Shown here piece after piece: positions 34,106-53,992 of a stretch of 64,000 nt of DNA. This DNA is from a virus. The notes below the pieces were generated by a model. The model had not been told where the DNA came from and did no database searches. It worked only from the letters and a program-made list of their open reading frames with translations. The stretch lies in the IMG/VR virus record IMGVR_UViG_3300027608_000021, positions 19,150-83,149 of that record. One strand, written 5' to 3'. Positions within the stretch are counted from its first letter, which is position 1. Each line of letters opens with the position of its first letter. The position numbers were made by a program, and so were the translations under genes.

Positions 34106-34116
34106 TGTGGTACAGT
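34106..34116 (+). promoter_or_regulatory. Possible extended -10 promoter for the rightward replication operon
   Basis: TGTGG-TACAGT about 35 bp upstream of ATG 34151. Confidence 0.4.
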
Positions 34117-34150
34117 GCCTCCGTCAAGCAATACAGCGATAGGAGGTTCT

Positions 34151-35083
34151 ATGCCAGTAATCGGGTTCATATCGTCGGACGGTACATCAGATCAGCCAGA
34201 AGGTCAAGGGCACTGCTCATTTGAGTTTGCCCTCCAACTGGCTAAGGATCGTCATGGGGCGTTTCCTTATCCGTACCCACTCCTCAAAGGAATCGTAGAC
34301 TCCGTTCAGAATCGGGGCGACTACATCAGCGCGACTTCCGTGCTGCACTGTCTCCGCGCTGACTACATGAAGCGGAAGGAAAACTACTACTCCACGGTGG
34401 AGTCAATGTATCCGTCGTTCCGTGGGACGCTGTTCCATGGGCTGCTGGAAAAGAACGCGCCAGACAATGCGCGGATTGAAGAAAAACTTAAGCGAACCTA
34501 CAAAGGCATTGAGATCGGTGGAACATTTGACTCGGTGCTTTGCTTCCCTGACGATGCGGACAAGAAATATATTATTCAGGACTGGAAGACGACGGAAAAT
34601 TTGCCGAAGTACGACAGCCCATACTCGTCGCACATCGTCCAAGTAAACCTCTATCGCTGGCTGCTTGGGTTCAAGCCTGAAGATGTCGTGATGGAAGTTC
34701 ATTACTTCTCCATGAAGGGTCATAAGGTCTGCCAACTTAAAGACGGCACAGGCATTGCTCGTGGCGGACGATCTCCAGTCAACCAGCATTGGTCTGACGA
34801 AAAGGTGGAGTCGTACCTAGACGACCGACTGATCAAACTCAAAGCCTCAATGGTCGCTGGGATGCCAATGCCATACAACATGGTTGGAGAGGACGAGAAG
34901 TGGGAGTGCGAGTACTGCCCAGTTCGGCAGAAGTGCGCAACACTTGCTCGCAGCGAGGAAGAGGCAACTTGGCGCAAGCGCGCTGGCTTGCCACCGACTG
35001 GTGCTGAGGGCGAAGATTCAGTAGCGTGGGTAGAACTCATCAAGGGCGTAGAGGCTCGCATCTCTAAGGCTGGTGCAAAGTGA
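34151..35083 (+). CDS. PD-(D/E)XK Cas4/RecB-like exonuclease
   Basis: ISATSVLHC, RGTLFH, GTFD, IQDWKT, QVNLY, C..C....C cluster. Confidence 0.85.
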   Translation: MPVIGFISSDGTSDQPEGQGHCSFEFALQLAKDRHGAFPYPYPLLKGIVDSVQNRGDYISATSVLHCLRADYMKRKENYYSTVESMYPSFRGTLFHGLLEKNAPDNARIEEKLKRTYKGIEIGGTFDSVLCFPDDADKKYIIQDWKTTENLPKYDSPYSSHIVQVNLYRWLLGFKPEDVVMEVHYFSMKGHKVCQLKDGTGIARGGRSPVNQHWSDEKVESYLDDRLIKLKASMVAGMPMPYNMVGEDEKWECEYCPVRQKCATLARSEEEATWRKRAGLPPTGAEGEDSVAWVELIKGVEARISKAGAK

Positions 35084-36435
35084 ACGCCACTGCTGCAGTA
35101 GGCACCACGCCGCACAGCAAGGAGGCAGAGGCTTCCTTCCTCGCGTCGTGTCTCATTGACGAGAACGCGATAGAGATTGGTCTGGACTTGGACATGAAGC
35201 CAGAGGACTTCTTCTCGCCAGCGCACGCTGACATTTGGAAGGTGATGACCAGCCTGAAGAACAACCGCAAGGTCGTTGATATGGTCACGGTCTCCGATGC
35301 CTTGCAAGGATGCGCGAGCATTGAGTTTCCTGCGACATTCATCACGGACTTGAGCCGAGCCAACGCTGGGCTTTCGTACAACGCAAAGGATTACGCGCAG
35401 ATCGTCCGAGATAAAGCGAGCCGACGCGCTCTGCTCACTGCCACCCAGCAAATCGCTGGGCTGGCGTACGACGAGAGCCGTCATGTGGATGTGATCTTTG
35501 ATCAGGCTGACGCGACATTCCGTCGGGTCACCGCAAAGGTCGTGGACACTGGTGTAGACCCAAGCCCTGCTGCGGTCATTGAGCGCATGGAGCAAACCAA
35601 GTCCAGCGGAGTCCCAGTGAAGTTCCCGCGACTCAACCAGATTACTGGCGGTCTCGTGAAGGGTCATCTCTGGGTCGTCGGTGGCTTCTCGTCCACAGGT
35701 AAGAGCGCATTCGCGGTCAATCTGCTGGACGATGTTGCTCGTGCTGGACAGGCTTCGGTGATGTTCTCCACGGAGATGAGCGCGGAGCAGTACATGCACC
35801 GTATGATCTCCCTGACGAGCCAGATCCCGCAGCGCGTGCTGAAGAACGGCGCGATGACGCTGGAAGAAAGCACGCAATACAAACTGGCGACTGACTTCTG
35901 GAAGTCCAAGAAGGTCATGATCTACGATAGCCTCTACACGGTCACCAAGATCCGACGCGCTGCCAAGCGCATCAAGGAACAGCAGGGGCTGGATGTCGTC
36001 TTTGTGGACTTCATTCAGAACCTGTCGGAGACTGGCGATGAGGTCAAGGACGCTCGCCTTGCCGCGATCCAACTGCAAGCGATGGCGAAGGAACTGGATG
36101 TCTGCGTCGTTGCGCTGAGCCAGATCTCCAACGCCCAAGCGATGCAGCAGAACGAGACTGGTGCGATGGGTAACTACTACGCCTTCAAGGGCAGCGGGGC
36201 GATCAAGGATGCCGCCGATGTTGCCATCATGCTTGACCGCGACCGCGTGAACAAGCCTGATGTTCTCTGGGTGAATGTCGTCAAGAACCGACACGACTCC
36301 ATTGACCGAATGGCTGCGTGGTTTGATCTCTCCACTGGTACAATCCGAACCATGAGCATTGACGAACAACTTGCGGCTGATCCAAACAGCGGTCGCCGCT
36401 CCAAGCAAAAGGAGAGCAGCGATGAAGTTTCCTGA
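35080..36435 (+). CDS. dnaB: Replicative DnaB-like helicase
   Basis: PHSKEAEASFL N-domain, GFSSTGKS, FSTEMS, VFVDFIQ, ALSQIS, GSGAIKDAAD, KNRH. Confidence 0.95.
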   Translation: MNATAAVGTTPHSKEAEASFLASCLIDENAIEIGLDLDMKPEDFFSPAHADIWKVMTSLKNNRKVVDMVTVSDALQGCASIEFPATFITDLSRANAGLSYNAKDYAQIVRDKASRRALLTATQQIAGLAYDESRHVDVIFDQADATFRRVTAKVVDTGVDPSPAAVIERMEQTKSSGVPVKFPRLNQITGGLVKGHLWVVGGFSSTGKSAFAVNLLDDVARAGQASVMFSTEMSAEQYMHRMISLTSQIPQRVLKNGAMTLEESTQYKLATDFWKSKKVMIYDSLYTVTKIRRAAKRIKEQQGLDVVFVDFIQNLSETGDEVKDARLAAIQLQAMAKELDVCVVALSQISNAQAMQQNETGAMGNYYAFKGSGAIKDAADVAIMLDRDRVNKPDVLWVNVVKNRHDSIDRMAAWFDLSTGTIRTMSIDEQLAADPNSGRRSKQKESSDEVS

Positions 36436-36667
36436 AGGCGTAACCGTAGAGCAGGTGTTCACTGAGAACTCTGGAGACTTGACATCAGAAGCACGGCGAG
36501 CCATTGACGAGTTGGTGAACAAGGACATCCTGATCACGCTAAAGGGAAGGGTAAAGTTCGTCGGTAGCCGAGTACTTACCTTCCAAGCGACAGATGCATA
36601 CGACAAGGTGGATACCATCGGAGTCAGGGCAAGCGATATCGTGGGGCTGGAGTTCCCAAATGAGTAA
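36422..36667 (+). CDS. Hypothetical protein
   Basis: GGAG RBS; operonic overlap. Confidence 0.55.
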   Translation: MKFPEGVTVEQVFTENSGDLTSEARRAIDELVNKDILITLKGRVKFVGSRVLTFQATDAYDKVDTIGVRASDIVGLEFPNE

Positions 36668-37046
36668 CCAGATAACGCAGAGCGAGCAGGAACTGCTGGC
36701 TCATGTCCTGCAAATGCTTGGAACAGGTCAGGCAACAACACAGAATCTTGACGACTACTTAATTGGATACGCCGTGCTAGGGCGTATTGTAGCCATTGCA
36801 CAGGGTGAGTCAGAGCGGTCGGAGCAGGAGCGAAAGATCGCATGGGCACGCGCATTTGCTGACGCAAAGTCATCACCAGAAAAGACGAGTGACAAACTCG
36901 CCGAAGTGAAAGCAGACCTCGTGGTAGAGAGCCTACGGCTCAAGGAAATAAATGCCCGTGAGCGACTGACCAACCTTCGCAATACTTGGCAAGCGGTGGA
37001 GCAAGCCATCAACGCCATCAAGTTCTTGGGAAGGAACGGTGCGTAG
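36660..37046 (+). CDS. Helical coiled-coil protein (possible recombination mediator)
   Basis: All-helical 128 aa in the replication operon; function is a guess. Confidence 0.45.
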   Translation: MSNQITQSEQELLAHVLQMLGTGQATTQNLDDYLIGYAVLGRIVAIAQGESERSEQERKIAWARAFADAKSSPEKTSDKLAEVKADLVVESLRLKEINARERLTNLRNTWQAVEQAINAIKFLGRNGA

Positions 37047-37442
37047 GTGAAAGACCCATTCCGAAAGCCGCCAGTAAACGCTGGGTCTGGGGTGGTGTGC
37101 GTAGACTTTGACGGCACGCTATTTCCATACCGACCGCTATACGAACTGAACCCACCAATCAACGGCGCGGTTGAGGCGGTGCGCTGGATGAAGGCACAGG
37201 GGTACAGGATCGTGATCTTTACCTCTCGCTGCTCTACAACTTGGTGCGAGCAGTCAGGAGAGAGCCTCTCCGCAAACCTCATCTGGGTCATTGACCGACT
37301 CATTGAGAATGGTATTCCATACGACGACATCACGGCAGAGAAAATCCCAGCAGAGTTTTATATTGACGACCGAGCGATTGAGTTCCGAGGAGATTGGAAC
37401 GAAGTCCTAGAGCGAATGAAGTCAGAACGGAGGGTGCATTGA
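37047..37442 (+). CDS. HAD-superfamily phosphatase-like protein
   Basis: CVDFDGTL, IFTSR, K...YIDDRA. Confidence 0.85.
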   Translation: MKDPFRKPPVNAGSGVVCVDFDGTLFPYRPLYELNPPINGAVEAVRWMKAQGYRIVIFTSRCSTTWCEQSGESLSANLIWVIDRLIENGIPYDDITAEKIPAEFYIDDRAIEFRGDWNEVLERMKSERRVH

Positions 37443-38053
37443 AAAACATCGGTATCGCTGGCAAGTTCGCTGTCGGCAAGACGAGTGTTGCGAACATTCT
37501 AGAAGCCAACCACGGGTATGTGAGGATGTCCATTGCGTCCTCGCTCAAGCAGTTTGTCAACGAAATGTACGCCCGAGATGTGTATGGCACGGACGAGGGC
37601 GCGACCCTGCAGAAGTCCGACTCCATTACGGTGAACACTCCAGACGGCAGACGAATGGTGACGGTTCGCCAGTTGCTGCAGGACATTGGCAATCAAATGA
37701 AACTGATTGACCAAGACATTTGGCTGCGTGGTGTTCGGCATCAGGTACTCCTTTGGAATGAAATGGGGAAGTCGGTTGTCATTGACGATGTTCGTTTCCC
37801 GCGAGAAGCAGAGTACCTCAAGAACATTGGCTTCATAAATGTCCGACTCACCGCGAGCGAGGATACTCGCCTTGAGAGGTACTTCAGGACATACGGCATC
37901 AACCCGAGCCGACAAGAGATCAACGACAAAAGCGAGACGCTCGTGGATTCTATCATCCCTGACTATGACCTAGATGGTGAACGCTCCGCAGAGGAGTTGG
38001 CTGATGTTCTTGCAGCCATCGCTGTGGAGCATACATATGATCTACTGTACTAG
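37439..38053 (+). CDS. Deoxynucleoside monophosphate kinase
   Basis: IGIAGKFAVGKT P-loop, RQLLQDIG, VIDDVRFPREA. Confidence 0.85.
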   Translation: MKNIGIAGKFAVGKTSVANILEANHGYVRMSIASSLKQFVNEMYARDVYGTDEGATLQKSDSITVNTPDGRRMVTVRQLLQDIGNQMKLIDQDIWLRGVRHQVLLWNEMGKSVVIDDVRFPREAEYLKNIGFINVRLTASEDTRLERYFRTYGINPSRQEINDKSETLVDSIIPDYDLDGERSAEELADVLAAIAVEHTYDLLY

Positions 38054-38165
38054 GTGCAGAAAGAAGTTTAATGGCATGGAAGCCGCAATGAGAAAGTTTG
38101 GAAAGAGCAAGAAGGTTCAATGCCCCTTCTGTTCGGAATGGATTGAGTATGCTAAAGCCGTTTGA
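38037..38165 (+). CDS. Small zinc-ribbon protein
   Basis: CTRC...CPFC; GGAG RBS. Confidence 0.55.
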   Translation: MIYCTRCRKKFNGMEAAMRKFGKSKKVQCPFCSEWIEYAKAV

Positions 38166-38532
38166 CGAGGGAGAAGTCATTCGCATTGAAAGCATTGTGT
38201 TCTCCTTAGATGGCGACATTGACTACATCAAGTTTCTGATCGCCGAACAACCCTACATAAGAAGTGCGATGCTTGCAACTAGCCCACCTAGCGACCCAGA
38301 GGAATGGACTGGGCGTTATCCAACCACCATTGGGAACGCCCTTCATTGTGACCTCGTTGAGTTGGAGGCTTGGCTTGAGACTCTCTCCCAGATTGACCGA
38401 GAGATTCTTACTGAATGGGCGAACCGCCAGAAGGCGAAGCCCTACTTTGCTGCTGCCAAGATCAGGCGCGTGAAGCACCTGATTGGTAAGTTCCCACAGG
38501 CGAGCCGTCGCCGAAGGAGCGGCAGTGCGTAA
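38149..38532 (+). CDS. Hypothetical protein, weak sigma region-4.1-like segment
   Basis: DLVELEAWLETLSQIDREIL; weak resemblance only. Confidence 0.4.
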   Translation: MLKPFDEGEVIRIESIVFSLDGDIDYIKFLIAEQPYIRSAMLATSPPSDPEEWTGRYPTTIGNALHCDLVELEAWLETLSQIDREILTEWANRQKAKPYFAAAKIRRVKHLIGKFPQASRRRRSGSA

Positions 38533-38728
38533 TAACTTTGCAGGAGACCAAGCACTCAAGTTTTTGTACGAGAAGTATTTGGAGGATCGTGAGAAGTCAG
38601 GCAAGAAAGTCAGTTTCCATAAATGGTTGAAGGCACGAGGCATCCTCTCTCCCGATGCGGAGCAGATGATTCGCCAGAACGAAGTGTCACTATCAGAAGA
38701 AGGATATGAAAATGAGGAGAAATCATAA
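38525..38728 (+). CDS. Hypothetical protein
   Basis: AAGGAG RBS before GTG; TAATG overlap with the next gene. Confidence 0.55.
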   Translation: MRNNFAGDQALKFLYEKYLEDREKSGKKVSFHKWLKARGILSPDAEQMIRQNEVSLSEEGYENEEKS

Positions 38729-39822
38729 TGCCGAACAGTGGATTCTTTTGGACTCAGGAGATGATAAAGAAACTTCTGACCGTTACCAAAGAGCAGTTCT
38801 TGGGTGACCATCCAGAAGTTACTAAGCACGCCTATCGTCAGCGATTGGCAGAGGAGTTGAAAACGATGAAAGACAAGGCGAAGGTAGCGGTCGTAGATGT
38901 GCCGCTTGTCCAAGTGCACCACGAGATTGCGCCTGTGACCCCAGTCAAGTACTCGTACATTGACAAGATTGGTAAGCCGATTGAGAAGCGTGGCGAGATT
39001 GTGGTCGCGGCTGGTGACTTCCAGTTCCCCTTTGAGGATCCAGAAGTCTTTGCTGCGTTCTTGACTTTCATTGCTACCGAGAAGCCAGAACGCATCGTGC
39101 TGACTGGCGACATCCTTGACCTGACTAGCGTCTCCGCATTTGAGCGAGACCCTCGTCTTGGGCTTCCTGTTCAGGATGAGTTGAATCACGCGCATAAGCG
39201 ACTAGCCGAGATCCGCGCAGCGGCTGGCAAGAAGGCTAAGATTCTGTTCATCTACGGAAACCACGAAGCGCGCTTCTCCAAGTGGCTGTCCCGCAAGGCT
39301 CCCGATCTTGTTGGACTTCACGATGCGAATGGTGTTGAGATGCTTTCGCTCGCCAACCTCTTGAGGCTGGATGCTTTGGACATCACTCCTTGCATCTCCG
39401 ATGGTGTTGCCTACAGTGGTCCTGAGCACCTGCGTTCGTACTATAAAATCACCGAGGACTTGATTGCCACACACGGAACTTACTCGCGTACTGCTGGTGG
39501 TGCTGCGTCCATTATTCCGATTTGTGAGGCTGCGGGCGTTTCCGTTGTCGGCGGGCACGATCATTCGCAAGGGATGGCGTTCCGCACTGTCGGTGGTTTC
39601 GCCGAACTGGAGGAGAAGCGAATGGTCGCCATCTCCACTGGTATGATGTGCCGCCGTACCGAACTGGGATACCTCGCCCAGCACCAAGTCGCTCGCTGGG
39701 CTGCTGGCTTCGCGGTCATTGAACTGTGGGGCGACAAGGCTGGTGAGTGGCAGCCCGACTTCGCGTCTTGGACTGGCACTGCTCTGGTCTGGCGCGGCAA
39801 GCGATATGCGGGGAAGCCGTGA
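38728..39822 (+). CDS. Calcineurin-like metallophosphoesterase
   Basis: GDFQ, LTGDILD, YGNHE, THG, GGHDH motifs. Confidence 0.9.
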   Translation: MPNSGFFWTQEMIKKLLTVTKEQFLGDHPEVTKHAYRQRLAEELKTMKDKAKVAVVDVPLVQVHHEIAPVTPVKYSYIDKIGKPIEKRGEIVVAAGDFQFPFEDPEVFAAFLTFIATEKPERIVLTGDILDLTSVSAFERDPRLGLPVQDELNHAHKRLAEIRAAAGKKAKILFIYGNHEARFSKWLSRKAPDLVGLHDANGVEMLSLANLLRLDALDITPCISDGVAYSGPEHLRSYYKITEDLIATHGTYSRTAGGAASIIPICEAAGVSVVGGHDHSQGMAFRTVGGFAELEEKRMVAISTGMMCRRTELGYLAQHQVARWAAGFAVIELWGDKAGEWQPDFASWTGTALVWRGKRYAGKP

Positions 39823-40382
39823 AGTCTCGCGGACGAGATAGCGGTATGTTGCGTGATCCATTCGGTAAGCCGCTTGTGAAAACCGAATCACAATCCACCC
39901 CCGAACAAAAGAAATCCAAGCGTGCGCTGCTTCGCCGATCCAAAGATGTGGAGCGGGAGTTTGCGCGCTGGCTTACTAGTGAGGACGGCTTTGATGAGAA
40001 GTACCGAAACCTCACTTCGTCCACTGGTCGTATCGGTCAGATCACTGGTATTCAAGCAGACATCCTTTCTGTTCACTATTTGGGTGAAGCGAAGAATGAG
40101 AAATTTCCACTGAAGTGGCTACGATATTGGCACAAGATTGTCCAAAAATCTACGGAGTGGAGGAAGGATCCAATCCTTCTGATCCTCCCTCCTAACCGAG
40201 CCGAAGTAGATCCGAAACTACCTGCGCTCCACATCATTACGCCTGAGCGTCACGCAGAACTTCTCCGCAAAGAGAAGTACTACGACGAACACGATGGTGA
40301 TGCGGAAGCAAAGTTCATCCAGCCAATCAACCCTAACCCAGTTACCAAGATTGTAAAGGAGATAAAGAATGGCGGGAAGTAA
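39819..40382 (+). CDS. Putative Holliday junction resolvase (PD-(D/E)XK)
   Basis: SKDVEREFARWL, ADIL, GEAKNE. Confidence 0.55.
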   Translation: MKSRGRDSGMLRDPFGKPLVKTESQSTPEQKKSKRALLRRSKDVEREFARWLTSEDGFDEKYRNLTSSTGRIGQITGIQADILSVHYLGEAKNEKFPLKWLRYWHKIVQKSTEWRKDPILLILPPNRAEVDPKLPALHIITPERHAELLRKEKYYDEHDGDAEAKFIQPINPNPVTKIVKEIKNGGK

Positions 40383-40569
40383 GAAGCCAGCCAAGATCGC
40401 GGTCAAGGGAAACTCCGCGAGTAAGGCGTTCCCAATCAAACTCTGTGCAAAGTGCAACAAGACCATCACCGCTGCGAAGGATTATGTCCCGCTTCAAGAG
40501 ATGTCGTGGGATAATAATCGCTTCTCGCGTAGGCAACTTGATTGTCACCGAGCGTGCATCAAGATCTAG
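40369..40569 (+). CDS. Small basic zinc-binding protein
   Basis: CAKC...HRAC; AAGGAG RBS. Confidence 0.55.
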   Translation: MAGSKKPAKIAVKGNSASKAFPIKLCAKCNKTITAAKDYVPLQEMSWDNNRFSRRQLDCHRACIKI

Positions 40570-41057
40570 GCTCCTCGCCCATCAAGTTGTGGGTGAGACG
40601 GCGCACCGCCGTACTCGTGGCGACGCTTGTAGTTGTACTTGCGTTGGTAAAACAAATGCTTGTTCACCATCTCAAGTGCGCGGCTCGCATCGCTGCGATC
40701 CCATCCCTCAACCATAATGCTGCCCTGCTCCGCTTGCGACGCTGGCAAGACCAAGACACTCCCGACAAGGAATGACTTGACATCCAGTTCGTCAAGGAGT
40801 GCGGTGGCATTGCGGTTGAGTTGATTGATCGGCTCCCACAGAGCCTCAGGGTCGCCGTAAATAGTTACGAGCATCCCCTTGCTGGGGTCTACAATCTCTG
40901 GCAGCCAGATGTCGCGGAATAGAATCCCAGCATCAGGGGCGGTGATCAACTTCTTGATGGTACTGATCCACGCCTTATGACTGAGCGTCTGCTCGTCAGA
41001 GAACCGCACGATCTCTGGCTCGCTGGTTGCACCAATAAACAATCCGTACTTACTCAT
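40566..41057 (-). CDS. Hypothetical protein (DUF3846-like)
   Basis: LNRNATALL...LVGSVLV pattern; GGAGGAG RBS. Confidence 0.5.
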   Translation of the reverse strand: MSKYGLFIGATSEPEIVRFSDEQTLSHKAWISTIKKLITAPDAGILFRDIWLPEIVDPSKGMLVTIYGDPEALWEPINQLNRNATALLDELDVKSFLVGSVLVLPASQAEQGSIMVEGWDRSDASRALEMVNKHLFYQRKYNYKRRHEYGGAPSHPQLDGRGA

Positions 41058-41071
41058 CTCTCCTCCTTCCA

Positions 41072-43255
41072 CTATCCGATCATCCCACGCTGGGTAAGTT
41101 TGCGCAAGAGGCTCGCCATCTTAGTAGGCAACTCCGATGGATCATTGCAGTCAATGAACTCCTGATACAGGCGACGATTGTCCTCGTCTGCACCATAGAC
41201 TCCGATGCCTACACCGATCACGATGCCGCCCTCGCGCTTGATGTCATTGACTAGATCCTTGACATTCTCTGCAACCGCTCCGTCCGTGAACTGGATGACC
41301 ACTCGCCTCTTGGCATCCACGCCCTTGAGCCGCTCCCACGCCATAGCCAGACCTTCTGCCGCTGGCGTACCGCCACCACCCCACATCCACATATTGGCGA
41401 GGGTTTCGTGCGTTAGCGGATCATTGAACCGCTTAGCGATACCTACGCGCCAGTCAGAGAATGTGTGTACCTCGTGAGGAATGTTAGAGCGCGACAGCGC
41501 GCTAGACATTAGAGCCGTGGACTGGATTGCATAGTAGAGCGGCGGGATAATCCCACGGCGACCATACATTTCTTTGCGCGCTGCGTCCATATCAAGTGTG
41601 CTCTTGTGACCATTGTTGATCCAGTCCTGCGCGAGCCTGAACACTGATGCCTCGTGGCTAATAACTTGCTCAGCAAAATCCTTCAGCATATTGGTGTGAG
41701 CCGCGCCCTCCGTCATTGAGCCGCTGAGATCCACCGACAGAACAAACGCGCTGCCGCCGTTGCGACCAGTGTGAGGCTCGCGGAATATATCCAACTTACC
41801 CAGCGTACCCTGCGATGCGCGGCGTGTATCCAACTTACCGCTGCGTGCAAACTGCCGACTCTTGCGACCAGCATTTGTCTGAGAGAATGTCCGCATCTGC
41901 ATTGCCAGCGCATTTGCGTATCCACCAACCTGTGCCACCATATTCGCAGCACCAGCCTTATCCTGCTTGACGATCTCCTCTGATGACTCGTAATACTCTG
42001 ACCGCCCAACAGCGACAACATTCACATACTTGCCGTCATAACCGACCTTACCGCTACCGATTGAAACCTTGACGCGACCGTGCTCATCCGTGCCGCTCTT
42101 GAGATCCCAGTCCAACTTGTTGATCGGGCTATTCGTAGCGAGCGGCGTAGCAGCGACATTGGTCTGCGGCGCGAAGTAAGTGGACTGCTCCACATTGTCG
42201 CTCCACAGCGTTGCCTCTGGCTTGAGTGCGTTCAACTTCTTGGCGAGTGAGCGAGCACGGCGGCGAATAGAATCGCTCGTCGCACCACCGATTACCTTGT
42301 CGTTCTTGCCGTCTCCGTTGATTTCGCCGTGTGATTGGTTGACTTGCGACTGAACTCCCATACGGCTCGCAGCCTCCTGCTCGTGCCGACGCTCATCCGC
42401 ATCGTAGGTCGTGCTTTCGGTCTCGCTTACTTGACCTGTGCTTGGATTGCTGCCAAGCCCTCCCGCTCCTGCGGATGGTGTCTGCCCACTTTCGGGTCTA
42501 GGAGAGGCGTTCTGGCTGGGGGAGCCGTCAGACCCCACCCCCTGAGACTGCGCCCCGCTCCGTGGCTCCTGCCCCCCTGTACGAAGGTTAGGATTGCCCC
42601 ACGGGGCGTTTCTGGCTTGCTCAACTGGGCTGATTTGTGGCTGTGCAGCAGCCTTTGCTTTCCGACCACGGCTGGCGATCTGATCTGCGACTTCATCAAA
42701 GAGAGGGAACACCCGCTCTACGATTGGCAGCAACTCCTCCGTTGTCTTTGCAGCACGAGCCGCATCACGCAGACCAGCGGCGCGAAACTTCTTGACAAAC
42801 TCACGCGCTCGTGGCTTGAGATTCTGTTCATCATATTCATATCCTGCTACCTCTAGATACATTGACTTGATTGCCTGAATGATCCACGCTTCGCCCTTGA
42901 TTTGTGGCATCGTCTGATCCACAAGGTTGCGCTGGAACTGCACGCGCAGACCACGCTTCTTGTGGAACGAGCGTCGCTCCATACGCCCATCCTCAAGAGA
43001 GTTGAGCAGCATCATAGTACCCTCGTCCAAATAGCGAGCCGCTGTTGGCGAAGTGCTTGTGATGTGCAGAGCCTCGTGCGCTGCCAAGTCTTGCGCGAAT
43101 GGCGACCCGACTGGCAGACTCACGACGCGCTGAGGAATGTGTGTGTTGGCTCCGTGCTCAATGTCACGGATCGCAACTGACTCGCCCTTGTTGCCAGCAA
43201 AAGCGTCAATGTACGCAGCCAACTGGGTGCGATTGAAGCGATACTTCTTAGGCAT
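41072..43255 (-). CDS. VWA-domain protein (CobT/NorD-like partner) with N-terminal HExxH domain
   Basis: AHEALH..NSLEDGRME; RSGKLD; MIDAS motif VDLSGSM...GGTP...FTDG. Confidence 0.88.
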   Translation of the reverse strand: MPKKYRFNRTQLAAYIDAFAGNKGESVAIRDIEHGANTHIPQRVVSLPVGSPFAQDLAAHEALHITSTSPTAARYLDEGTMMLLNSLEDGRMERRSFHKKRGLRVQFQRNLVDQTMPQIKGEAWIIQAIKSMYLEVAGYEYDEQNLKPRAREFVKKFRAAGLRDAARAAKTTEELLPIVERVFPLFDEVADQIASRGRKAKAAAQPQISPVEQARNAPWGNPNLRTGGQEPRSGAQSQGVGSDGSPSQNASPRPESGQTPSAGAGGLGSNPSTGQVSETESTTYDADERRHEQEAASRMGVQSQVNQSHGEINGDGKNDKVIGGATSDSIRRRARSLAKKLNALKPEATLWSDNVEQSTYFAPQTNVAATPLATNSPINKLDWDLKSGTDEHGRVKVSIGSGKVGYDGKYVNVVAVGRSEYYESSEEIVKQDKAGAANMVAQVGGYANALAMQMRTFSQTNAGRKSRQFARSGKLDTRRASQGTLGKLDIFREPHTGRNGGSAFVLSVDLSGSMTEGAAHTNMLKDFAEQVISHEASVFRLAQDWINNGHKSTLDMDAARKEMYGRRGIIPPLYYAIQSTALMSSALSRSNIPHEVHTFSDWRVGIAKRFNDPLTHETLANMWMWGGGGTPAAEGLAMAWERLKGVDAKRRVVIQFTDGAVAENVKDLVNDIKREGGIVIGVGIGVYGADEDNRRLYQEFIDCNDPSELPTKMASLLRKLTQRGMIG

Positions 43256-44240
43256 TAGCCACCTCCTCAACTACAGGCTGGTTCTCATCGTCACCAGCGA
43301 ACGCATCCAAGAACAACTTGTGCACGACAGGACGATCCTCGCCGTTGATCTTATTGGTGAACGCAATCTCCACCGCAGCCATAATGCTGATCTCCGTTGA
43401 GAGCAGCGCAATGTCAATCGCACGGCGTGTACTTGCAGTCACGAACATTGAGAGCGGCTGTTGCGTAACCTTCTGGGTCTCTGTGCCATCCTCATTCTTG
43501 ATGGTCTCCAGTACAGGCTCGCCAAGACCAGCCGCACGGCGCACGCTGTTGAATACCTCAACGATGCGAGTCGCACGAGAGTGCTTGATCTTTCCAGCCC
43601 GAGCGATGACCGCTGCTTCCTTCTCAGGATTCTCTAGCCCGAGATACGCAACCTCTGCCACAATGAAGCGGTCAAGAGTTGCCTCGTTGAGAATGCGAGC
43701 ACCAGCGTACTGACCGCTGTCTGCAGGGTTCGCTGTAGCCACCAACATAAATGCTGGATGCGGCTCAATGAACTCTGCACCATCTGGCTTCTCATAGATA
43801 TTGAGTCGGTACTCTGTTGCCAAGAAATCGTGCAGTCGCATTAGCGTCCGCTCGTCGGCAGCGTTGATCTCGTCCAACACGAGGATGCCACCCTGACGCA
43901 AAGCATTAGGCAGCGCGCCATCACGCCACTCCACAGCGATGCCGTTCTTACCAGATACAGGGATCGGCATACCAATCAACTGATCCGTCGTCGTGCCTTC
44001 AGCCAGCGAGACAACATAGACAGGCAGCCCCAACTGATGCGCGAACCAACGCACAGCAGCGTTCTTGCCAGTACCAGTATGCCCACTCAGCAACACAGGT
44101 CGCTTGTGCTTGAACCCTAGAGCGAGAGCCGTAGCCTCCTCACCCTGAACCTCGTAATCCTCCGCAGCAGGGATCAAATGCTCCCCACCTGAAACCTTTG
44201 GCTTCTCCAACGAGATGCCCTGAATCTGAACTTCTGCCAT
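43248..44240 (-). CDS. MoxR-type AAA+ ATPase (CobS/CbbQ/NorQ-like)
   Basis: GHTGTGKN, WRDGAL, LVLDEIN, VATANP, LNEATLDRF, STR. Confidence 0.92.
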   Translation of the reverse strand: MAEVQIQGISLEKPKVSGGEHLIPAAEDYEVQGEEATALALGFKHKRPVLLSGHTGTGKNAAVRWFAHQLGLPVYVVSLAEGTTTDQLIGMPIPVSGKNGIAVEWRDGALPNALRQGGILVLDEINAADERTLMRLHDFLATEYRLNIYEKPDGAEFIEPHPAFMLVATANPADSGQYAGARILNEATLDRFIVAEVAYLGLENPEKEAAVIARAGKIKHSRATRIVEVFNSVRRAAGLGEPVLETIKNEDGTETQKVTQQPLSMFVTASTRRAIDIALLSTEISIMAAVEIAFTNKINGEDRPVVHKLFLDAFAGDDENQPVVEEVANA

Positions 44241-44296
44241 ACTACCTCCTTCATTGCTACACCTTCCTATCCTCTAGCCGAAACCATTTCATAGAT

Positions 44297-44620
44297 CTCC
44301 ATCCTTACTTGTTGCTGGTTTGTGAGGGGTGCACTCTTACTACAAAGTCCTCACCGACCAATCTTGAGGCATATGAACCAAAGGTTCGCCTCAGCAGAAG
44401 TGTGTCCGTTAGTAGCGTCTGCCACCTCGCTATTGGTGCGACCCCTTTTATTGGAGACCTTTCACCGAGAGCGGCGCATCTGGCTTATCTAGAATCCACC
44501 AGATACTATTGCTCAGGGTTACCACGAGTCCCAAAAGGATCGCACCCAGACAGAGAACCTTACGATTCTCTGGCGAGTGGGGTGTTCTAAGTCCCACTCA
44601 CCAGAGACCATATTGTCTCC
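44297..44620 (-). ncRNA. Candidate ~320-nt structured non-coding RNA
   Basis: Between two element copies, with no long minus-strand ORF. Stems: 44567-44581/44593-44607, 44435-44449/44533-44546, 44476-44483/44499-44506, 44365-44393, 44322-44354. Confidence 0.6.
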
Positions 44621-44678
44621 TACCCTCTAGCCGAAAGTGTTTCACATATCCCTTTCGGTAAAGAGATTATAAATATTT

Positions 44679-44876
44679 CTAAATGTTTAGTCCGTATCTG
44701 CGAAGATCTCGCTTGAGATTCTGCACGGCTCGCCCATCGCTAGGCGTGAACGACGAGAACACCTTCACGCCAGTCGGGGAGACCCACGACAGATGCGTGT
44801 TCTTTCTCTGCTCCACGCGCCAGCCCTGAGCCACCGCGATCTCAAACAAATCCCTATAAACCTTAGGCACTTTCAT
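44679..44876 (-). CDS. HicA-like (dsRBD-fold) small protein
   Basis: QGWRVEQRKNTHLSWVSPTG...TPSD.RAVQNLKRDLRRYG. Confidence 0.65.
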   Translation of the reverse strand: MKVPKVYRDLFEIAVAQGWRVEQRKNTHLSWVSPTGVKVFSSFTPSDGRAVQNLKRDLRRYGLNI

Positions 44877-45013
44877 TTGATAGCCGTCCAAATGATTACG
44901 CCGAAAGTGATGAGCGCGCACACCACGATGGTGGCATCCTGCCGCTCTCGTGTCTTGCGAGCCTCCTTCACATAGTATGACTCAATGTTGCGAACCTTCT
45001 TGCGTGTCCTCAT
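44873..45013 (-). CDS. Small C-terminal-TM protein (46 aa)
   Basis: ATGA overlaps at both ends; basic N-terminus then hydrophobic helix. Confidence 0.55.
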   Translation of the reverse strand: MRTRKKVRNIESYYVKEARKTRERQDATIVVCALITFGVIIWTAIK

Positions 45014-46392: not shown

Positions 46393-46803
46393 CTATTCCC
46401 AAACATACGGCAAGTCGTTTGACTCGTGCCACCCAAACTTGCTGTAATAATCTGCGTCCTTGCGGAGCAGATTGCTACGATGCGACTCGTGGAAGTCGTC
46501 GCGTCCCAACCACGGCGGCACTACGACAGCCGTTTCGTAGTCGCGGTACGCCAGAATCTTGTCGCGGCAAGTGTCCTTGTACCCGCGCTTGATCCACTCG
46601 TCGCACATCGCTACGCCATAAACCACGAGGCAGTTCTCATACCCTCGCCACATCTTTGCAGCGGGGTGATTGACCCACCCTTTTGTCTCGCCCTTGAGAG
46701 CCTTGAGCAGTTGGAGCGTCTCCACTCGCTGCTTGCCTAGTCTCTGTCTGTCAAGAACCTGAGCAGACTTCACGAAGTCATTGTATGGCAGGAATGTTTG
46801 CAT
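46393..46803 (-). CDS. Pyrimidine-dimer DNA glycosylase / endonuclease V-like protein (MSMEG_6728-type)
   Basis: MQTFLPY, LDRQRLGKQRVE, HPAAKMWRGY, EW..RGY.D, PPWLG, SHRSNLLRKD. Confidence 0.85.
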   Translation of the reverse strand: MQTFLPYNDFVKSAQVLDRQRLGKQRVETLQLLKALKGETKGWVNHPAAKMWRGYENCLVVYGVAMCDEWIKRGYKDTCRDKILAYRDYETAVVVPPWLGRDDFHESHRSNLLRKDADYYSKFGWHESNDLPYVWE

Positions 46804-47216
46804 CAGTCCCACCACCAGAGCACAGAGTCTCCGCGATCCTCAAACTCGTCGGCTCCCAACGCAGAGCCTCGCACGGATGCCTTCATCCGCTTGTATTCGT
46901 CTGCGCTGTATGCGTTCAGACCTTCTAGCGAAAGCCGTGCGTCCTCTCGCCCACAGCCAACCAAGTAGCCGTGATACTTCACCTCAATACCTTCCGCTTC
47001 TAGTCGCCCTGCTTCTTTGATCAGAGCAAGCGTGCCGATGAAGTTATTCCAAAGTTGGTAGTCGGTAAGAGCACCTCCTGCCAACAGAGCCTCCTCCATC
47101 TTATCCCACGGCACATCGCTGAACCGACGGAGACCGCCAGACCAGTCATCGTGCGTGAAGTACGGAGACAGAATCTGCTCTACCTGATCTACAATCTGCT
47201 GCTTCTCGTCAGTCAT
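46803..47216 (-). CDS. Hypothetical protein
   Basis: GAGGAGG RBS; coupled start/stop; ends LWWWD. Confidence 0.7.
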   Translation of the reverse strand: MTDEKQQIVDQVEQILSPYFTHDDWSGGLRRFSDVPWDKMEEALLAGGALTDYQLWNNFIGTLALIKEAGRLEAEGIEVKYHGYLVGCGREDARLSLEGLNAYSADEYKRMKASVRGSALGADEFEDRGDSVLWWWD

Positions 47217-50327: not shown

Positions 50328-50402
50328 ACCATTACCTCCCACTATCAGGGGATCAGATTGTCTGACCCTCCTACCCTCTAGCCGACATCATTTCACAGAT
50401 CC

Positions 50403-50576
50403 TTACTTCTCCAATCGTACTGGAGTTTCGGTGGACTGATCAAAGCCAACCTTCGCACCAAGCCATACGAAATCCTCGTGATCGCGCACGAGTTTCGCGC
50501 ACTTCGCCTGATCGTTAGCAGCCGCTGCTGCCTCCATCTCCTGCTCAATCTGATCCAGTTTCTCCTGAATGGTCAT
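50403..50576 (-). CDS. Small helical hypothetical protein
   Basis: Element + hairpin + AGGAGG upstream. Confidence 0.65.
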   Translation of the reverse strand: MTIQEKLDQIEQEMEAAAAANDQAKCAKLVRDHEDFVWLGAKVGFDQSTETPVRLEK

Positions 50577-50716
50577 CCCTACCTCCTGCTCTGAGGGGAT
50601 CATCCCCTCCTACCCTCTAGCCGACATCATTTCACATATGTTTAGCATAAAATATTAGTATTATATTACACATATATACCCCAGAAAATCGCCCGAAATA
50701 CCCTATTTATATCAAC

Positions 50717-50890
50717 TCACAGGGGAGTCTGCTTCCCTCTCCTAGCCGATTCTGCTTCCTGCTCTCTACGCTTCTGGCGTGCTTTCTCCATCAGTTCATT
50801 ATGGAGTCGGAGCGTGCCCTTCCCACTCATCACCATACGGAATGAGCGTGAATCCACCTTATTGTCTCTATTGCTCTTGATGTAGTCCAT
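50717..50890 (-). CDS. Small basic protein (57 aa, not in ORF track)
   Basis: MDYIKSNRDNKVDSRSFRMVMSGKG...; element + AGGAGG upstream. Confidence 0.6.
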   Translation of the reverse strand: MDYIKSNRDNKVDSRSFRMVMSGKGTLRLHNELMEKARQKRREQEAESARRGKQTPL

Positions 50891-51287
50891 CAGTCTATCC
50901 TCCTACTCTCTAGCCGAGATCATTACATAGATGACCTCAGTCCATACCCCTCAATACTAGGCGACGCTCGCCGCGTGCTTATTTGTTGTGCTGCCCTCTA
51001 CCCTCTAGCCGAGAACATTACACATTTGCCCAGTCTTGGCAAGCCTTTCCCACCAGAGCCAAAAGCATTTCACATATCCCACCCGCGTGAATGGTACATC
51101 TGTTCTATTCGCCACTAGCAAGGGGGTTATCCACATATGTGAAACAATCCTGTGAAACATTACACATATACCACCCCCCTGAAACGGAGCCATAATCATT
51201 TCACATATAAGTATAAGAGAATGGACAGAGAGGGGTAGGAGTCCCTCCCTGTCCTAGTGTCTTTGTGCTTCTCCTACTTCGGCGGAC

Positions 51288-51611
51288 TTAGCGGACGATT
51301 GCGGAGACCGCTCCTCGTGGCAACCCTACGCCCTGCCGCACCACGCTCTGGTGTCGCCCTGTCGTGTGGCTGTACTTCTCCGCTGGCACAACCCACTCGC
51401 CCCGCTTCGTGTACCACGCGATTGGTGTGCTGTACGAGTAGACTACATACGAGACTTCTCCCGCTGTGATGTCTGCCAGCCACAACTCCTGCGCCCTGCC
51501 GTAGATGATCCCTGATCCGTTAGGGCTGCGCGTTGCCCAGATGCTGTTGCCTCTGAACTCTGCACGCTGCGCCACTTTACCAATGGCATCGTGCCGTGTC
51601 GTGTATCCCAT
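51288..51611 (-). CDS. Conserved phage hypothetical protein (YSYxTPIA...YSxTTxRHQ motif)
   Basis: Motif pattern; element + hairpin + AGGAGG upstream; hairpin downstream at ~51223-51253. Confidence 0.75.
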   Translation of the reverse strand: MGYTTRHDAIGKVAQRAEFRGNSIWATRSPNGSGIIYGRAQELWLADITAGEVSYVVYSYSTPIAWYTKRGEWVVPAEKYSHTTGRHQSVVRQGVGLPRGAVSAIVR

Positions 51612-51715
51612 TTGACCTCCTACTATCTGAGGGGAACTTCCCCTCCTACCCTCTAGCCGAGAACATTTCACATATCCTTATGACAGCCAGAGCCAACATC
51701 ATTTCACATATATGG

Positions 51716-51950
51716 AGAAAAAGCAAGGGGGGAGCACCCCGTCGGATACTCCCCCCCTGTATCGGGTTGATTCCTACACCCCCCGTCGGGGATGTGCTCC
51801 TCGCCACCCTACCGCTCCCAGATTTACAGAGTCTGCCCTAGCGGTCATCGCTCCACCTGCATCTCCAATACCCGCATTTGAGGCTGCGGCATTTTGATCG
51901 CTCGTCCGATCGCCTCACCTTAGGGAGAGAGTTCCTAGGATCTCTCCTCC
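51716..51950 (-). ncRNA. Candidate ~230-nt structured non-coding RNA with its own terminator
   Basis: Between an element copy and a U-tailed terminator; no convincing ORF; six successive hairpins. Confidence 0.6.
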
Positions 51951-52032
51951 TACCCTCTAGCCGTAATCATTTCACATATGGATAGAACAGATGTTCTATT
52001 TGGCCAGAGCCACAATCATTTCACATATAATA

Positions 52033-52068
52033 TAAAAGAAAAGGGGAGGGCTGCCCACCCTCCCCTTC
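52033..52068 (-). terminator. Intrinsic terminator
   Basis: AAGGGGAGGG/CCCTCCCCTT stem followed by a U-rich tail on the minus strand. Confidence 0.75.
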
Positions 52069-52070
52069 CC

Positions 52071-52310
52071 TTAGACCTTCTTGCTGATTGTTCTAATGGC
52101 TGCCAGATCCCAGAAGCCATCACCTCGTGCCTGATCATTGAGGAGGATCCTCCCCGAGATCAACGCGCCCTTGTTCTTGTACTCCCCTGCGGCTGCTGCT
52201 GCGGCGTACCGCATCACCTCCGCACTTGGTGCAATATTGGTGAGTGTACGCTTCGCGTGTCCACCCTTCCCGAACTGCGCCCAACGCTTCAGACCCCAGA
52301 CCTTACGCAT
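52071..52310 (-). CDS. Small basic hypothetical protein
   Basis: Element + AGGAGG upstream; terminator downstream. Confidence 0.7.
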   Translation of the reverse strand: MRKVWGLKRWAQFGKGGHAKRTLTNIAPSAEVMRYAAAAAAGEYKNKGALISGRILLNDQARGDGFWDLAAIRTISKKV

Positions 52311-52548
52311 CTTGACCCTCCTACTAGTGGTGGCGTATCTCGCCTCCTACCCTCTAGCCGAGATCGTTTCACATTAGATAACTAATAAAGAGAGCCAGAA
52401 CCATTTCACATATGCTACTAGAATCATTACACATATAAAATAATAAAACGCCGATATGTGAAATGATTATAAAAATACATCCCTAATGTGAAATGATAGT
52501 GGCACGGGGGTTCGGGAGGAGGCTCCTGCCTCCCCCCTCCCCTCCCTC

Positions 52549-52848
52549 TTAGAAGTGCGGATCCATATACTCTCGCGCTTCTCCGAGTGTGAGTCCGTAC
52601 ACGCTTGCTCCTGGAACGTAGAACTCCGTGCCTCGCTTTGTATCCTTCAGTCTGAACTTCATCTCTCGCCCGTTGAGTCCGCCGCTTGTAATGTATCGCA
52701 CCACGACCTCTTTTGTGAGCCGCCCGTTGCGCTTGGCTGCCGCTTCTGTTGCGAAGGGTACGATCCTCACAACCTCTGCCGCGTATGAGTCCGATCCGCA
52801 ATGGATCGTTGCTGGCATCCCCAGCGCGAGTCCTTTGTACCAGTCCAT
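52549..52848 (-). CDS. Conserved phage hypothetical protein (ends DPHF)
   Basis: GMPATIHCGSDSY...GEAREYMDPHF; element + hairpin + RBS upstream. Confidence 0.75.
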   Translation of the reverse strand: MDWYKGLALGMPATIHCGSDSYAAEVVRIVPFATEAAAKRNGRLTKEVVVRYITSGGLNGREMKFRLKDTKRGTEFYVPGASVYGLTLGEAREYMDPHF

Positions 52849-53109
52849 CTGACCCTCCTACTCTGAGGGGAACTGCCCCTCACCCTCTAGCCGCAATCAT
52901 TACATATATAGCGGAGCCACAAGTATTTCACATATACGCCACTAGTTGAGGGTATATTCTTTGATTGTGCCACTAGTTATGTGAAATAGTCTCATATTTC
53001 GTGCGTGCCAACATCATTTCACATATACTAGTCAAAACAAATAAATCATTTCACATATTGCCAGACGCTGCCAAGTTTCGCCCAAATGTGGCACGATCAT
53101 TTCACATAT

Positions 53110-53143
53110 GATAGGGGAGGGTGATTGTCCACCCTCCCCTATC
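53110..53143 (-). terminator. Hairpin after gene 53146-53484
   Basis: GATAGGGGAGGGTG/CACCCTCCCCTATC 14-bp perfect stem. Confidence 0.65.
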
Positions 53144-53145
53144 CC

Positions 53146-53484
53146 CTAGATCGTGATCGTCTGACCCTTTGCCAGATTGTAGATCGCCATCTGGCGATTC
53201 TCCCTCCCGAGTCTCATAGCATCCCGCTTCGTGCGGACGATTGTCGTAGGATCCAGATGGATTGTATCGCCATCCACCCACGCTCCCAGATGCCGAGTCC
53301 CGAACCGATACCAGATGAGGAACAATGCCTGACGGATTGTCGTCTCCGTTGCCGTGATCGGGAGCCTGATTGCCGTCTCCGTCGTGGCTCCTACGGCATA
53401 CCCCCGCTTCGGGGTGATCGGGGTGAGGGTGCGACTCTTGATCGTCGCTCCGCCATCCCGCAGGATTCTATCGCGTAGATTCAT
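53146..53484 (-). CDS. Conserved phage hypothetical protein
   Basis: GGAT, GYAVG, LGAWVD...HLD, A..LG....Q.AIY pattern; element upstream. Confidence 0.75.
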   Translation of the reverse strand: MNLRDRILRDGGATIKSRTLTPITPKRGYAVGATTETAIRLPITATETTIRQALFLIWYRFGTRHLGAWVDGDTIHLDPTTIVRTKRDAMRLGRENRQMAIYNLAKGQTITI

Positions 53485-53596
53485 CTCCTGATCCTCCTAC
53501 TAGTGGAGTGCTCTTGCCCTCCTACCCTCTAGCCGAGATCGTTTCACATAGCATAAAAAATATGCGGAGCCACAATCATTTCACATATAACACAAT

Positions 53597-53632
53597 AAAA
53601 AAGGCAGGGAGGTACGCTGACCCCCCTGCCTT
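53597..53632 (-). terminator. Intrinsic terminator
   Basis: AAGGCAGGG/CCCTGCCTT stem plus A-run on the + strand. Confidence 0.7.
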
Positions 53633-53636
53633 CTTG

Positions 53637-53801
53637 TTAGATTCTGCCGTCTCGTCGTGCCTTCTCGTATAGTGCCGCACGACTCTCCAAGTAGTCCTGA
53701 CGATCCTGATACTGCTCAATCTTTTGGATGATTAGCATCCCTGTGAGTACGAATAGTGCACCACCTGTGAACGCCGTCAAGATTGCCGAGATCTCTACCA
53801 T
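53637..53801 (-). CDS. Small N-terminal-TM protein (54 aa, not in ORF track)
   Basis: MVEISAILTAFTGGALFVLTGMLIIQKIEQYQDRQDYLESRAALYEKARRDGRI; element + hairpin + AGGAGG. Confidence 0.65.
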   Translation of the reverse strand: MVEISAILTAFTGGALFVLTGMLIIQKIEQYQDRQDYLESRAALYEKARRDGRI

Positions 53802-53992
53802 TGCCGTTTCCTCCTACTAGTGGAGAGCACTTCTCTCCTACCCTCTAGCCGAGATCATTTCACATATCCGCGTGATGGAATACCTTAAAAGCAAGCCACT
53901 AGAAGAAGCATATGTGAAACAATCTCAGACTCATAATCATTACACATATAAGATTGTGTGCGGTGCCAGAATCATTTCACATATGAATGAGC

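Follow-up and report, generated by a model that had tools for sequence, protein, structure and literature searches.

A compact structured RNA with a predicted pseudoknot encoded upstream of CobS/CobT-like genes in related phages

Introduction

The orphan phage RNAs GOLLD, ROOL, and manA have reportedly been found in recent work to build RNA-only assemblies; their functions are said to be unknown and few such families to have been described. The structured RNA encoded by phage phi29, pRNA, is made early, oligomerizes by loop-loop pairing, and docks an ATPase, and in the Ro60-Y RNA system a VWA/MIDAS protein is paired with a dedicated small structured RNA. Here, we describe a structured noncoding RNA (ncRNA) encoded on the minus strand at positions 44297-44620 of a 64,000-nucleotide (nt) stretch of virus DNA, the window (bases 19150-83149 of the 83,149-base virus record IMGVR_UViG_3300027608_000021), directly upstream of genes for a CobS/MoxR-like AAA+ ATPase and a CobT-like protein with a C-terminal VWA domain. 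The unit was flagged as a possible RNA gene in an initial annotation made from the letters alone. We regard it as very likely that this is a real, conserved, structured ncRNA.

Comparison with Described RNAs

Similar to GOLLD and ROOL, and also to OLE and the manA motif, the RNA is phage-encoded and non-coding, lies in what appears to be its own transcription unit, is predicted to contain a pseudoknot, and has no known function. It is about 245-320 nt long (core, 248 nt; unit, 324 nt) as compared with >500-800 nt for GOLLD and ROOL. These lie near tRNA islands, whereas ARAGORN finds no tRNA or tmRNA gene in the whole 64-kb window. The RNA also differs in matching no covariance model, in being confined so far to a very small clade, and in its fixed linkage to CobS/CobT-like genes. 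Membership of GOLLD or ROOL was rejected on the missing model match, the short length, and the missing tRNA neighborhood. Phage phi29 pRNA sets a precedent for an RNA scaffold that works with a ring ATPase in a phage. The present RNA differs in having no Rfam match and in its neighboring ATPase, which is of the MoxR/CobS class rather than a packaging enzyme, the terminase gene being located elsewhere (Table 1). In addition, the self-complementary loop described below would predict dimers rather than rings. Membership of the pRNA family was rejected on the absence of a model match and on the AAA_5/CobS-like nature of the ATPase. The Ro60-Y RNA pair offers an analogy for an RNA partner of a VWA protein, and it too was rejected as a family assignment: the 732-residue CobT-like protein has no TROVE domain, its nearest clusters are CobT-like, and no Y RNA model matches.

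A search of the whole window with the 4227 models of Rfam 15 gave no match at gathering score, in agreement with the initial annotation, which had not recognized a tRNA, tmRNA, RNase P RNA, or intron. At E values of up to 10 only chance rows appeared (snoU13, 13.9 bits against a gathering score of 46; JPX_2, 15.3 against 48), and the most distant version of the RNA likewise matched no Rfam model.

Relatives of the RNA

A second copy of the RNA is present on the same record and is 90% identical over 294 nt, as compared with about 80% for the flanks. Further relatives were found on the IMG/VR contigs L009 and L010 and on the metagenome contigs L015, L018, L019, and L020. The distinct set comprises six close versions, namely A (the copy in the window), B (the sister copy on the same record), L015, L019, L009, and L018, and one distant version, L010; the RNA of L020 has the L018 sequence. 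In the L010 locus, the ATPase is 69-73% identical and the VWA protein 42% identical, and the order RNA-ATPase-VWA is kept despite different upstream genes. The order element, RNA, element, ATPase, VWA, in which the elements are the promoter-like sequences described below, is constant in all relatives, which form a small clade of lake phages with genomes of ~57 kb.

Wider searches returned little else. There was no match to 521 nt of the locus in a blastn search of 50,697 cultured-phage records and no match to an exact 24-mer in the viral contig set. Protein-guided scans of viral, metagenome, and genome contigs gave the loci listed above and distant cobS-like loci that lack the RNA. A degenerate pattern of the 3' domain was found at 61 loci, and a model of the RNA, R1, matched 3 of the 66 sources searched, all of them known contigs; the remaining pattern matches are therefore taken to be chance. 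R1 hits the window once and each close relative once, so that the RNA is a single copy and not an array. Three distant cobS-like phage loci were checked and have no spacer upstream of the cobS-like gene; the RNA therefore appears to be a specialty of this clade. A 1051-nt query gave a list of 24 sequencing runs; at least 0.67 of the sampled words are present in 14 runs of DNA type (12 study codes), which are labeled lake water, freshwater, or estuary, with one fungus metagenome.

Folding and Coding Tests

The initial annotation had named a folding energy no better than that of shuffled sequence as grounds for refutation. The 324-nt minus strand folds at -136.5 kcal/mol (z score, -5.96), and none of 100 shuffles is as good; the plus strand gives a z score of -4.04. 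The six close versions were aligned with MAFFT, and RNAalifold returned 95 pairs, 22 of which show compensatory change. The refined model, in which the apical pairs of P5 are dropped and a pseudoknot is added, has 94 pairs in 13 helices. In the six close versions, 97.0% of its 536 cells pair and 22 pairs have changed on both sides. None of 500 shuffles reaches the model on any of five measures, and 39-46% of cells pair in a control in which the partners are slid by 1-3 columns. In this model, the predicted fold is kept by compensatory change in Pa, the arm P1-P5, P6 with the pseudoknot, P7, and P8. The cells of the proposed pairs include 58 G-U and 6 A-C combinations, a bias that had been noticed in the initial annotation, and the minus strand is therefore the selected RNA strand.

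The same alignments bear on whether the unit is a small protein gene of 30 or 49 codons, or else a chance structure in spacer DNA. Minus-strand open reading frames (ORFs) of these lengths do exist: the 30-codon ATG ORF at 44519-44611 that the initial annotation had taken to be the sole ORF, and a 49-residue GTG ORF at 44448-44597. There are also plus-strand ORFs of 130, 56, and 50 residues. None of these reading frames is conserved among the relatives, which differ by indels of 1 and 2 nt; the sister copy lacks the ATG of the 30-codon ORF, and L009 and L018 lack that 5' region altogether. Substitutions are paired and not codon-periodic, the helices covary, and base pairs rather than a reading frame are kept, as had been anticipated. 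A small protein gene or chance structure is thus already contradicted and retains next to no probability.

Predicted Architecture

Features of the RNA and of its surroundings are collected in Table 1. Pa brackets the P1-P5 arm together with hairpin P6 in a predicted three-way junction, and L010 has GUCA/UGAC at the matching places. P1 is retained in L009 and L018 with almost wholly different sequence. Beyond it, a conserved internal loop, CGYGGUA (44520-44526), faces GAAA (44460-44463), an arrangement that may be a motif of the loop-E or sarcin-ricin type. In the independent minimum free energy (MFE) fold of L010, CGCGGUA lies opposite GAAA, and L010 retains CUCGCGGUAGCC and GGCGAAAAGUUUC. An alignment by eye had given ACUCGUAUUA as the L010 counterpart of ACUCGU in copy A; this was wrong, and the true counterpart is CUCGCGGUAGCC. 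The L010 fold repeats the order P2, internal loop, P3 (GCC/GGC), and P4 (CGC/GCG), beyond which come a further three-way arm and a hairpin whose loop is palindromic.

The 3' domain is 122-125 nt long in all seven sequences, and a plain, near-gapless MAFFT alignment of it was used for the pseudoknot. The 3' half of the 10-nt loop of P6 pairs with a segment 11-14 nt downstream, which would form an H-type pseudoknot. In L010, P6 has a 7-bp stem and a 10-nt loop in the same columns, and the pseudoknot is spelled GUCUA/UAGAC, with five of five pairs kept and three changed on both sides. Toward the 3' end, a junction UCAAGAUWGGKCG is common to the close group and L010, in which P8 is ACUCUG/CAGAGU. 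By these comparisons, L010 confirms the predicted H-type pseudoknot and helices P2-P4 and P8. P3, P4, P7, P8a, and P9 show no variation among the close six.

The helices named in the initial annotation, a 15-bp hairpin with its alternative CAGAGAA/UUCUCUG (44551-44572), a 14-bp long-range stem, and 3' hairpins, are all present. The long stem had been thought to close a multiloop of three hairpins; instead, it closes one long irregular arm (P2-P5). The length of ~320 nt also needs revision, since the conserved core is about 245 nt and the 15-bp hairpin, P0, which overlaps the alternative hairpin, is an accessory found in four of the six close versions and missing from L009 and L018. The proposed pairing of the 5' GGAGAC with GUCUCC can form in this copy and is kept in no relative; it was rejected as a helix of the family.

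Other candidate pairings were rejected as well. CCAAU/AUUGG and CACUU/GAGUG are not retained across relatives, and a closing stem Pc (44557-44559 with 44313-44315) is doubtful, its 5' half lying inside the promoter-like element in L009 and L018. The RNAalifold UCU/AGA pairs (columns 239-241 with 273-275 of alignment A4) are superseded by the pseudoknot.

Table 1. Coordinates of the RNA, its helices, matching RNA-library contigs, and nearby features in the window
Feature	Positions	Strand	Observations
Conserved RNA core, about 248 nt	44314-44561	-	conserved block in six close versions; minus-strand fold z score -4.21
P0, optional 5' hairpin, 14-15 bp	44568-44606	-	14 pairs, 100% paired where present (4 of 6 close sequences); 3 changed on both sides
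Pa, GUCUG (44547-44551) with CGGAC (44404-44408)	44404-44551	-	5 pairs, 90% paired, 2 changed on both sides
P1, long-range stem, 44535-44546 with 44435-44446	44435-44546	-	11 pairs, 8 changed on both sides
P2, 44527-44534 with 44452-44459	44452-44534	-	CAGAGGCU/AGUUUCUG in L010
P3 (ACC/GGU) and P4 (GAGC/GCUC)	44464-44519	-	invariant in six close sequences
P5 hairpin, 9 bp, 13-nt apical loop (44485-44497)	44476-44506	-	loop holds palindrome UCUAGA (44488-44493)
P6 hairpin (AUAGCG/CGCUAC), 10-nt loop AGGUGGCAGA	44412-44433	-	5 of 6 pairs changed on both sides among close versions
Predicted H-type pseudoknot, loop GCAGA (44418-44422) with UCUGC (44394-44398)	44394-44422	-	5 pairs, 100% paired in 6 distinct rows
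P7/P7a hairpin	44365-44393	-	invariant among close versions save G-U/A-U changes; shorter L010 hairpin at same place
Junction AGAUUGGUCG (44355-44364), P8 (GUGAGG/CCUCAC), P8a, P9 (UGGU/ACCA)	44316-44364	-	
RNA-library contig, 245 nt	44314-44556		word depth 156
RNA-library contig, 247 nt	44316-44561		word depth 14
RNA-library contig, 241 nt	44326-44566		word depth 15
RNA-library contig, 206 nt	44330-44530		word depth 2.7
Upstream promoter-like element of RNA unit, ~33 nt	44617-44651	-	13-mer core 44624-44636
Second promoter-like element, between RNA and ATPase gene	44262-44296	-	13-mer core 44271-44283
CobS/MoxR-like AAA+ ATPase gene, 330 residues	43248-44240	-	AAA_5 2.1e-19, weak CbbQ_C; directly 3' of RNA in all relatives
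Gene for CobT-like protein with C-terminal VWA domain, 732 residues	41072-43270	-	VWA 3.6e-5; nearest Atlas clusters carry VWA, CobT_C, and CobT families
T4-type terminase	776-2197		away from RNA locus

A Palindromic Apical Loop

In five of the six close versions, the apical loop of P5 contains UCUAGA; L009 has UGUACA instead. In the latter, letters two and five are swapped to complementary bases, which keeps the palindrome and breaks the pairs that RNAalifold had placed within the loop. An apical loop in the same domain of L010 holds UGAUCA. Neighboring bases of one loop are unable to pair with each other. The P5 palindrome thereby suggests a kissing-loop dimer of the RNA, which is a lead and not a result. 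The same likeness, an apical loop that changes while staying palindromic, is seen in the kissing loops of OLE and GOLLD, and in a cryogenic electron microscopy study, palindrome-to-palindrome switches in these RNAs are taken as evidence for symmetric kissing loops (PMC12286853). Short phage-associated RNAs can multimerize too, according to a further report (10.64898/2026.07.01.735769).

Matching Contigs in RNA Libraries

Six RNA libraries contain small shares of the query words, and four of them, from three studies, were examined. All four hold one contig each whose whole length lies inside 44314-44566 (Table 1). The contigs differ from the window copy at 4-8 positions, and the differences match the states of relatives, such as an internal loop spelled CGCGGUA and UGGGGC within P7. 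They correspond to the conserved core, with P0 and the downstream gene outside. The flanking genes within 43900-44950 are left uncovered, which is not in itself evidence. These contigs give a fair hint of a stable, abundant RNA core of ~245 nt without the optional 5' hairpin.

Contig ends near those of the core, together with a pseudoknot, a multi-helix junction, and the absence of a terminator, are also what would be expected of a self-processing ribozyme that cuts itself from the primary transcript and so yields a defined core. Such a ribozyme is very unlikely. No self-cleaving ribozyme or intron model of Rfam 15 matches, and from run to run the contig ends shift by 5-36 nt, a spread that does not point to a single cut site. 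In L009 and L018, moreover, the core starts right at the promoter-like element, leaving nothing to remove on the 5' side.

Promoter-like Elements and the Relation to the Downstream Genes

Small genes on the minus strand form a leftward array, with a ~33-nt element heading each gene or short operon and the RNA unit at the far end. The 13-mer of this element has 20 matches at up to two mismatches, as compared with 1.2 expected, and 19 of the 20 are on the minus strand between 44271 and 53854. The position of the unit between two such elements, as initially annotated, was borne out by the 13-mer cores on either side (Table 1). Other copies in the array are followed by a short leader, a Shine-Dalgarno (SD) sequence, and a start codon. 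In sister phages, a different element occupies the same place ahead of the RNA in one to three tandem copies, with three in B/L015 and in L009. A further element lies between the RNA and the ATPase gene in all seven sequences, each time in its own spelling. The elements probably act as promoters.

A cis-acting leader of the CobS/CobT-like operon has to be weighed here. The RNA would then be a structured 5' untranslated region (a riboswitch or a processing or stability element) read from the upstream tandem promoter, and the ~245-nt species a decay product. Cob-type genes are classic riboswitch targets, and the RNA shares with cobalamin riboswitches its position as a structured RNA upstream of such genes; it is on the strand of the ATPase gene, directly upstream of it, in both lineages. 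No terminator-like site lies between RNA and gene, and tandem elements occur elsewhere in the array (e.g., at 50919 and 51014). This reading is nonetheless unlikely. A separate promoter-like element and an SD sequence intervene between RNA and gene in all seven sequences, no pairing to the SD sequence and no expression platform was found, and riboswitch models, those for cobalamin included, give no match even at E values of up to 10. The RNA-library contigs stop about 75-90 nt ahead of the ATPase start codon, a weak argument, and the three distant cobS-like phage loci have no upstream spacer. A cobalamin riboswitch in particular was rejected: no cobalamin or adenosylcobalamin model matches at E values of up to 10, there are no terminator-like sites and no SD masking, and the promoter-like element separates RNA and gene.

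Another reading of the tandem elements is that the RNA marks a replication origin region or serves as a primer or R-loop transcript, in the manner of ColE1 RNA II or T4 ori, from strong tandem promoters. A non-coding unit with tandem promoter-like copies and probably strong transcription, lying ~4 kb from the junction with the DnaB-helicase module, would suit such a replication element. It is extremely unlikely, however, as the compensatory changes and the excess of G-U over A-C cells point to selection on one RNA strand and not on DNA. A primer would have no need of the pseudoknot and conserved loop, and no AT-rich unwinding stretch or iterons adjoin the RNA.

Further features of the elements were observed. 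The ~33-nt element is spelled differently in each related phage at the same positions (L002, L009, L010, L015, L018, and L019), with four spellings found, which fits a phage-specific transcription factor co-evolving with its sites. A gene at 54059-54694, a candidate sigma-like factor, has no Pfam match at E values of up to 0.1. At L018:1040-1130 (identical in L020), two or three inverted element copies lie directly upstream of the forward copy that heads the RNA; these may be divergent promoters or operator-like sites. On the right side of the array (50387-53854, minus strand), most units have a short GC-rich hairpin between element and SD sequence (e.g., at 50626, 51662, and 52896), which may be a 5' stabilizer or a translational control hairpin.

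Genomic Context

Self-comparison shows that bases 1-27885 of the record match bases 57209-83149 (window 38060-64000) at 74-86% identity, and related contigs span 57,186 to 58,132 bases. By this comparison, the 83-kb record is apparently ~1.45 units of a phage genome of ~57.2 kb, with overlapping ends from two related phages. Since the two ends are just 74-86% identical, the assembly most likely runs from one phage strain into a related one, and the CheckV completeness estimate of 63% is therefore misleading.

The genes flanking the RNA are complete, each with its own stop, SD sequence, and start. The best matches of the ATPase among cultured phages are annotated as CobS and are 25-32% identical. 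Nineteen further relatives of the ATPase (P0002-P0020) have identities of 44-87%. The 732-residue protein shows only VWA and VWA_CoxE domains at E values of up to 0.01, and a PDB sequence search with it gave no match. According to one report, viral cobST genes occur as widespread pairs and are proposed to boost cobalamin synthesis (PMC8651126).

Several other genes of the region deserve mention. The 80-residue protein adjoining the RNA upstream (44679-44921, minus strand) matches only PHROG 2089/2053, of unknown function, and no Pfam family; by eye, it may resemble small HicA-like RNA-binding toxins. It is missing from the L010 locus. A DenV-type pyrimidine-dimer glycosylase (46393-46815, minus strand; Pyr_excise, 1.5e-26) has a counterpart at L010:1541-1948 and is 88% identical between the two lineages, as compared with 40-70% for neighboring genes, which appears to point to strong constraint or recent exchange. 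The leftward early array ends with a gene of 168 codons at 40566-41072 and meets a rightward module around 40400-40570. This replication module (34115-40382) encodes a PD-(D/E)XK nuclease, a DnaB helicase, a dNMP kinase, and a metallophosphatase.

Possible Role of the RNA

There is an even chance, in our estimate, that the locus is a stand-alone gene for a stable, trans-acting structural RNA of a new family. The RNA would be transcribed from its own promoter, of which sister phages would have up to three tandem copies. As no terminator-like site lies between the RNA and the ATPase gene, the transcript would be trimmed to the core: host RNases would remove the 5' hairpin and the 3' read-through, and the RNA would accumulate as the ~245-nt core. 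It would pair with another molecule of the same RNA by way of the palindrome in the P5 loop and would work in trans as a folded, protein-binding RNA.

Only one genetic observation points to a partner, namely the linkage with the CobS/CobT-like pair, which is maintained in L010. This co-inherited motor is tentatively proposed as the partner; a host factor or defense protein, with the RNA as a host-directed decoy, is an equally tentative candidate. The more specific proposal of a dimeric scaffold or substrate that is bound or remodeled by the phage CobS/CobT-like AAA+/VWA motor is doubtful. Of the roles suggested in the initial annotation, decoy and scaffold thus remain candidates, and an antitoxin of type III is unlikely. 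A ToxI-like antitoxin RNA was rejected: there are no tandem repeats at 44200-44720, the neighboring proteins match no toxin family, and the 80-residue protein is missing from the L010 locus. Retron msr-msd RNA was rejected in view of the 83-kb record, which has no reverse transcriptase (PF00078, no match at E values of up to 1; the same search gave matches in 4 of 14 control genomes). Group I and group II introns match no model here, and the flanking genes are complete. By eye, a CsrB-like GGA sponge was rejected on a GGA count near expectation, and an SD decoy on an L010 loop that is not SD-like.

Several considerations weigh against a stand-alone, trans-acting RNA that dimerizes and works with the motor. 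The RNA-library data are contigs, from which strand and true ends cannot be read; contigs may break at just these borders through strain variation, and DNA can occur in RNA libraries, the comparison having covered RNA libraries alone. We infer the transcript, its ends, and its level from sequence and contigs. The alignment comprises seven distinct sequences, which represent two lineages. Among the close six, the 3' domain hardly varies, and P5, P7, P8a, and P9 therefore rest on little or no covariation; P8a and P9 are not kept in L010. The dimer draws on one compensatory event and one loop with positional homology only. The tie between the RNA and the ATPase and VWA proteins is one of gene linkage; many phages carry CobS/CobT-like pairs, and no such spacer is present at the three distant loci examined. 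Finally, since there is no terminator, transcripts are expected to run on into the ATPase gene, and this fits a leader too.

Significance

The initial annotation had raised the possibility of a new phage ncRNA class. With no Rfam match, and with covariation-supported helices and a predicted pseudoknot in seven distinct sequences, the RNA is such a class, and it joins the orphan structured phage RNAs as a small member whose fold and genetic context are new. A literature search turned up no account of this motif or of any RNA located upstream of viral cobS/cobT, and that search is the whole basis for regarding the RNA as not in print. The RNA is compact (~245 nt), with a well-defined, pseudoknotted predicted fold, a likely dimerization loop, and a fixed genetic partner, and it occurs in many lake metagenomes. 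Its size and the set of sequences make it directly testable. The viral CobS/CobT-like pair is itself widespread and functionally unexplained. If a partnership between the RNA and the ATPase/VWA proteins holds true, at least some viral cobST pairs would be ribonucleoprotein machines rather than cobalt-chelatase helpers, and the locus would be the second phage case, after pRNA, of a structured RNA that works with a ring ATPase.

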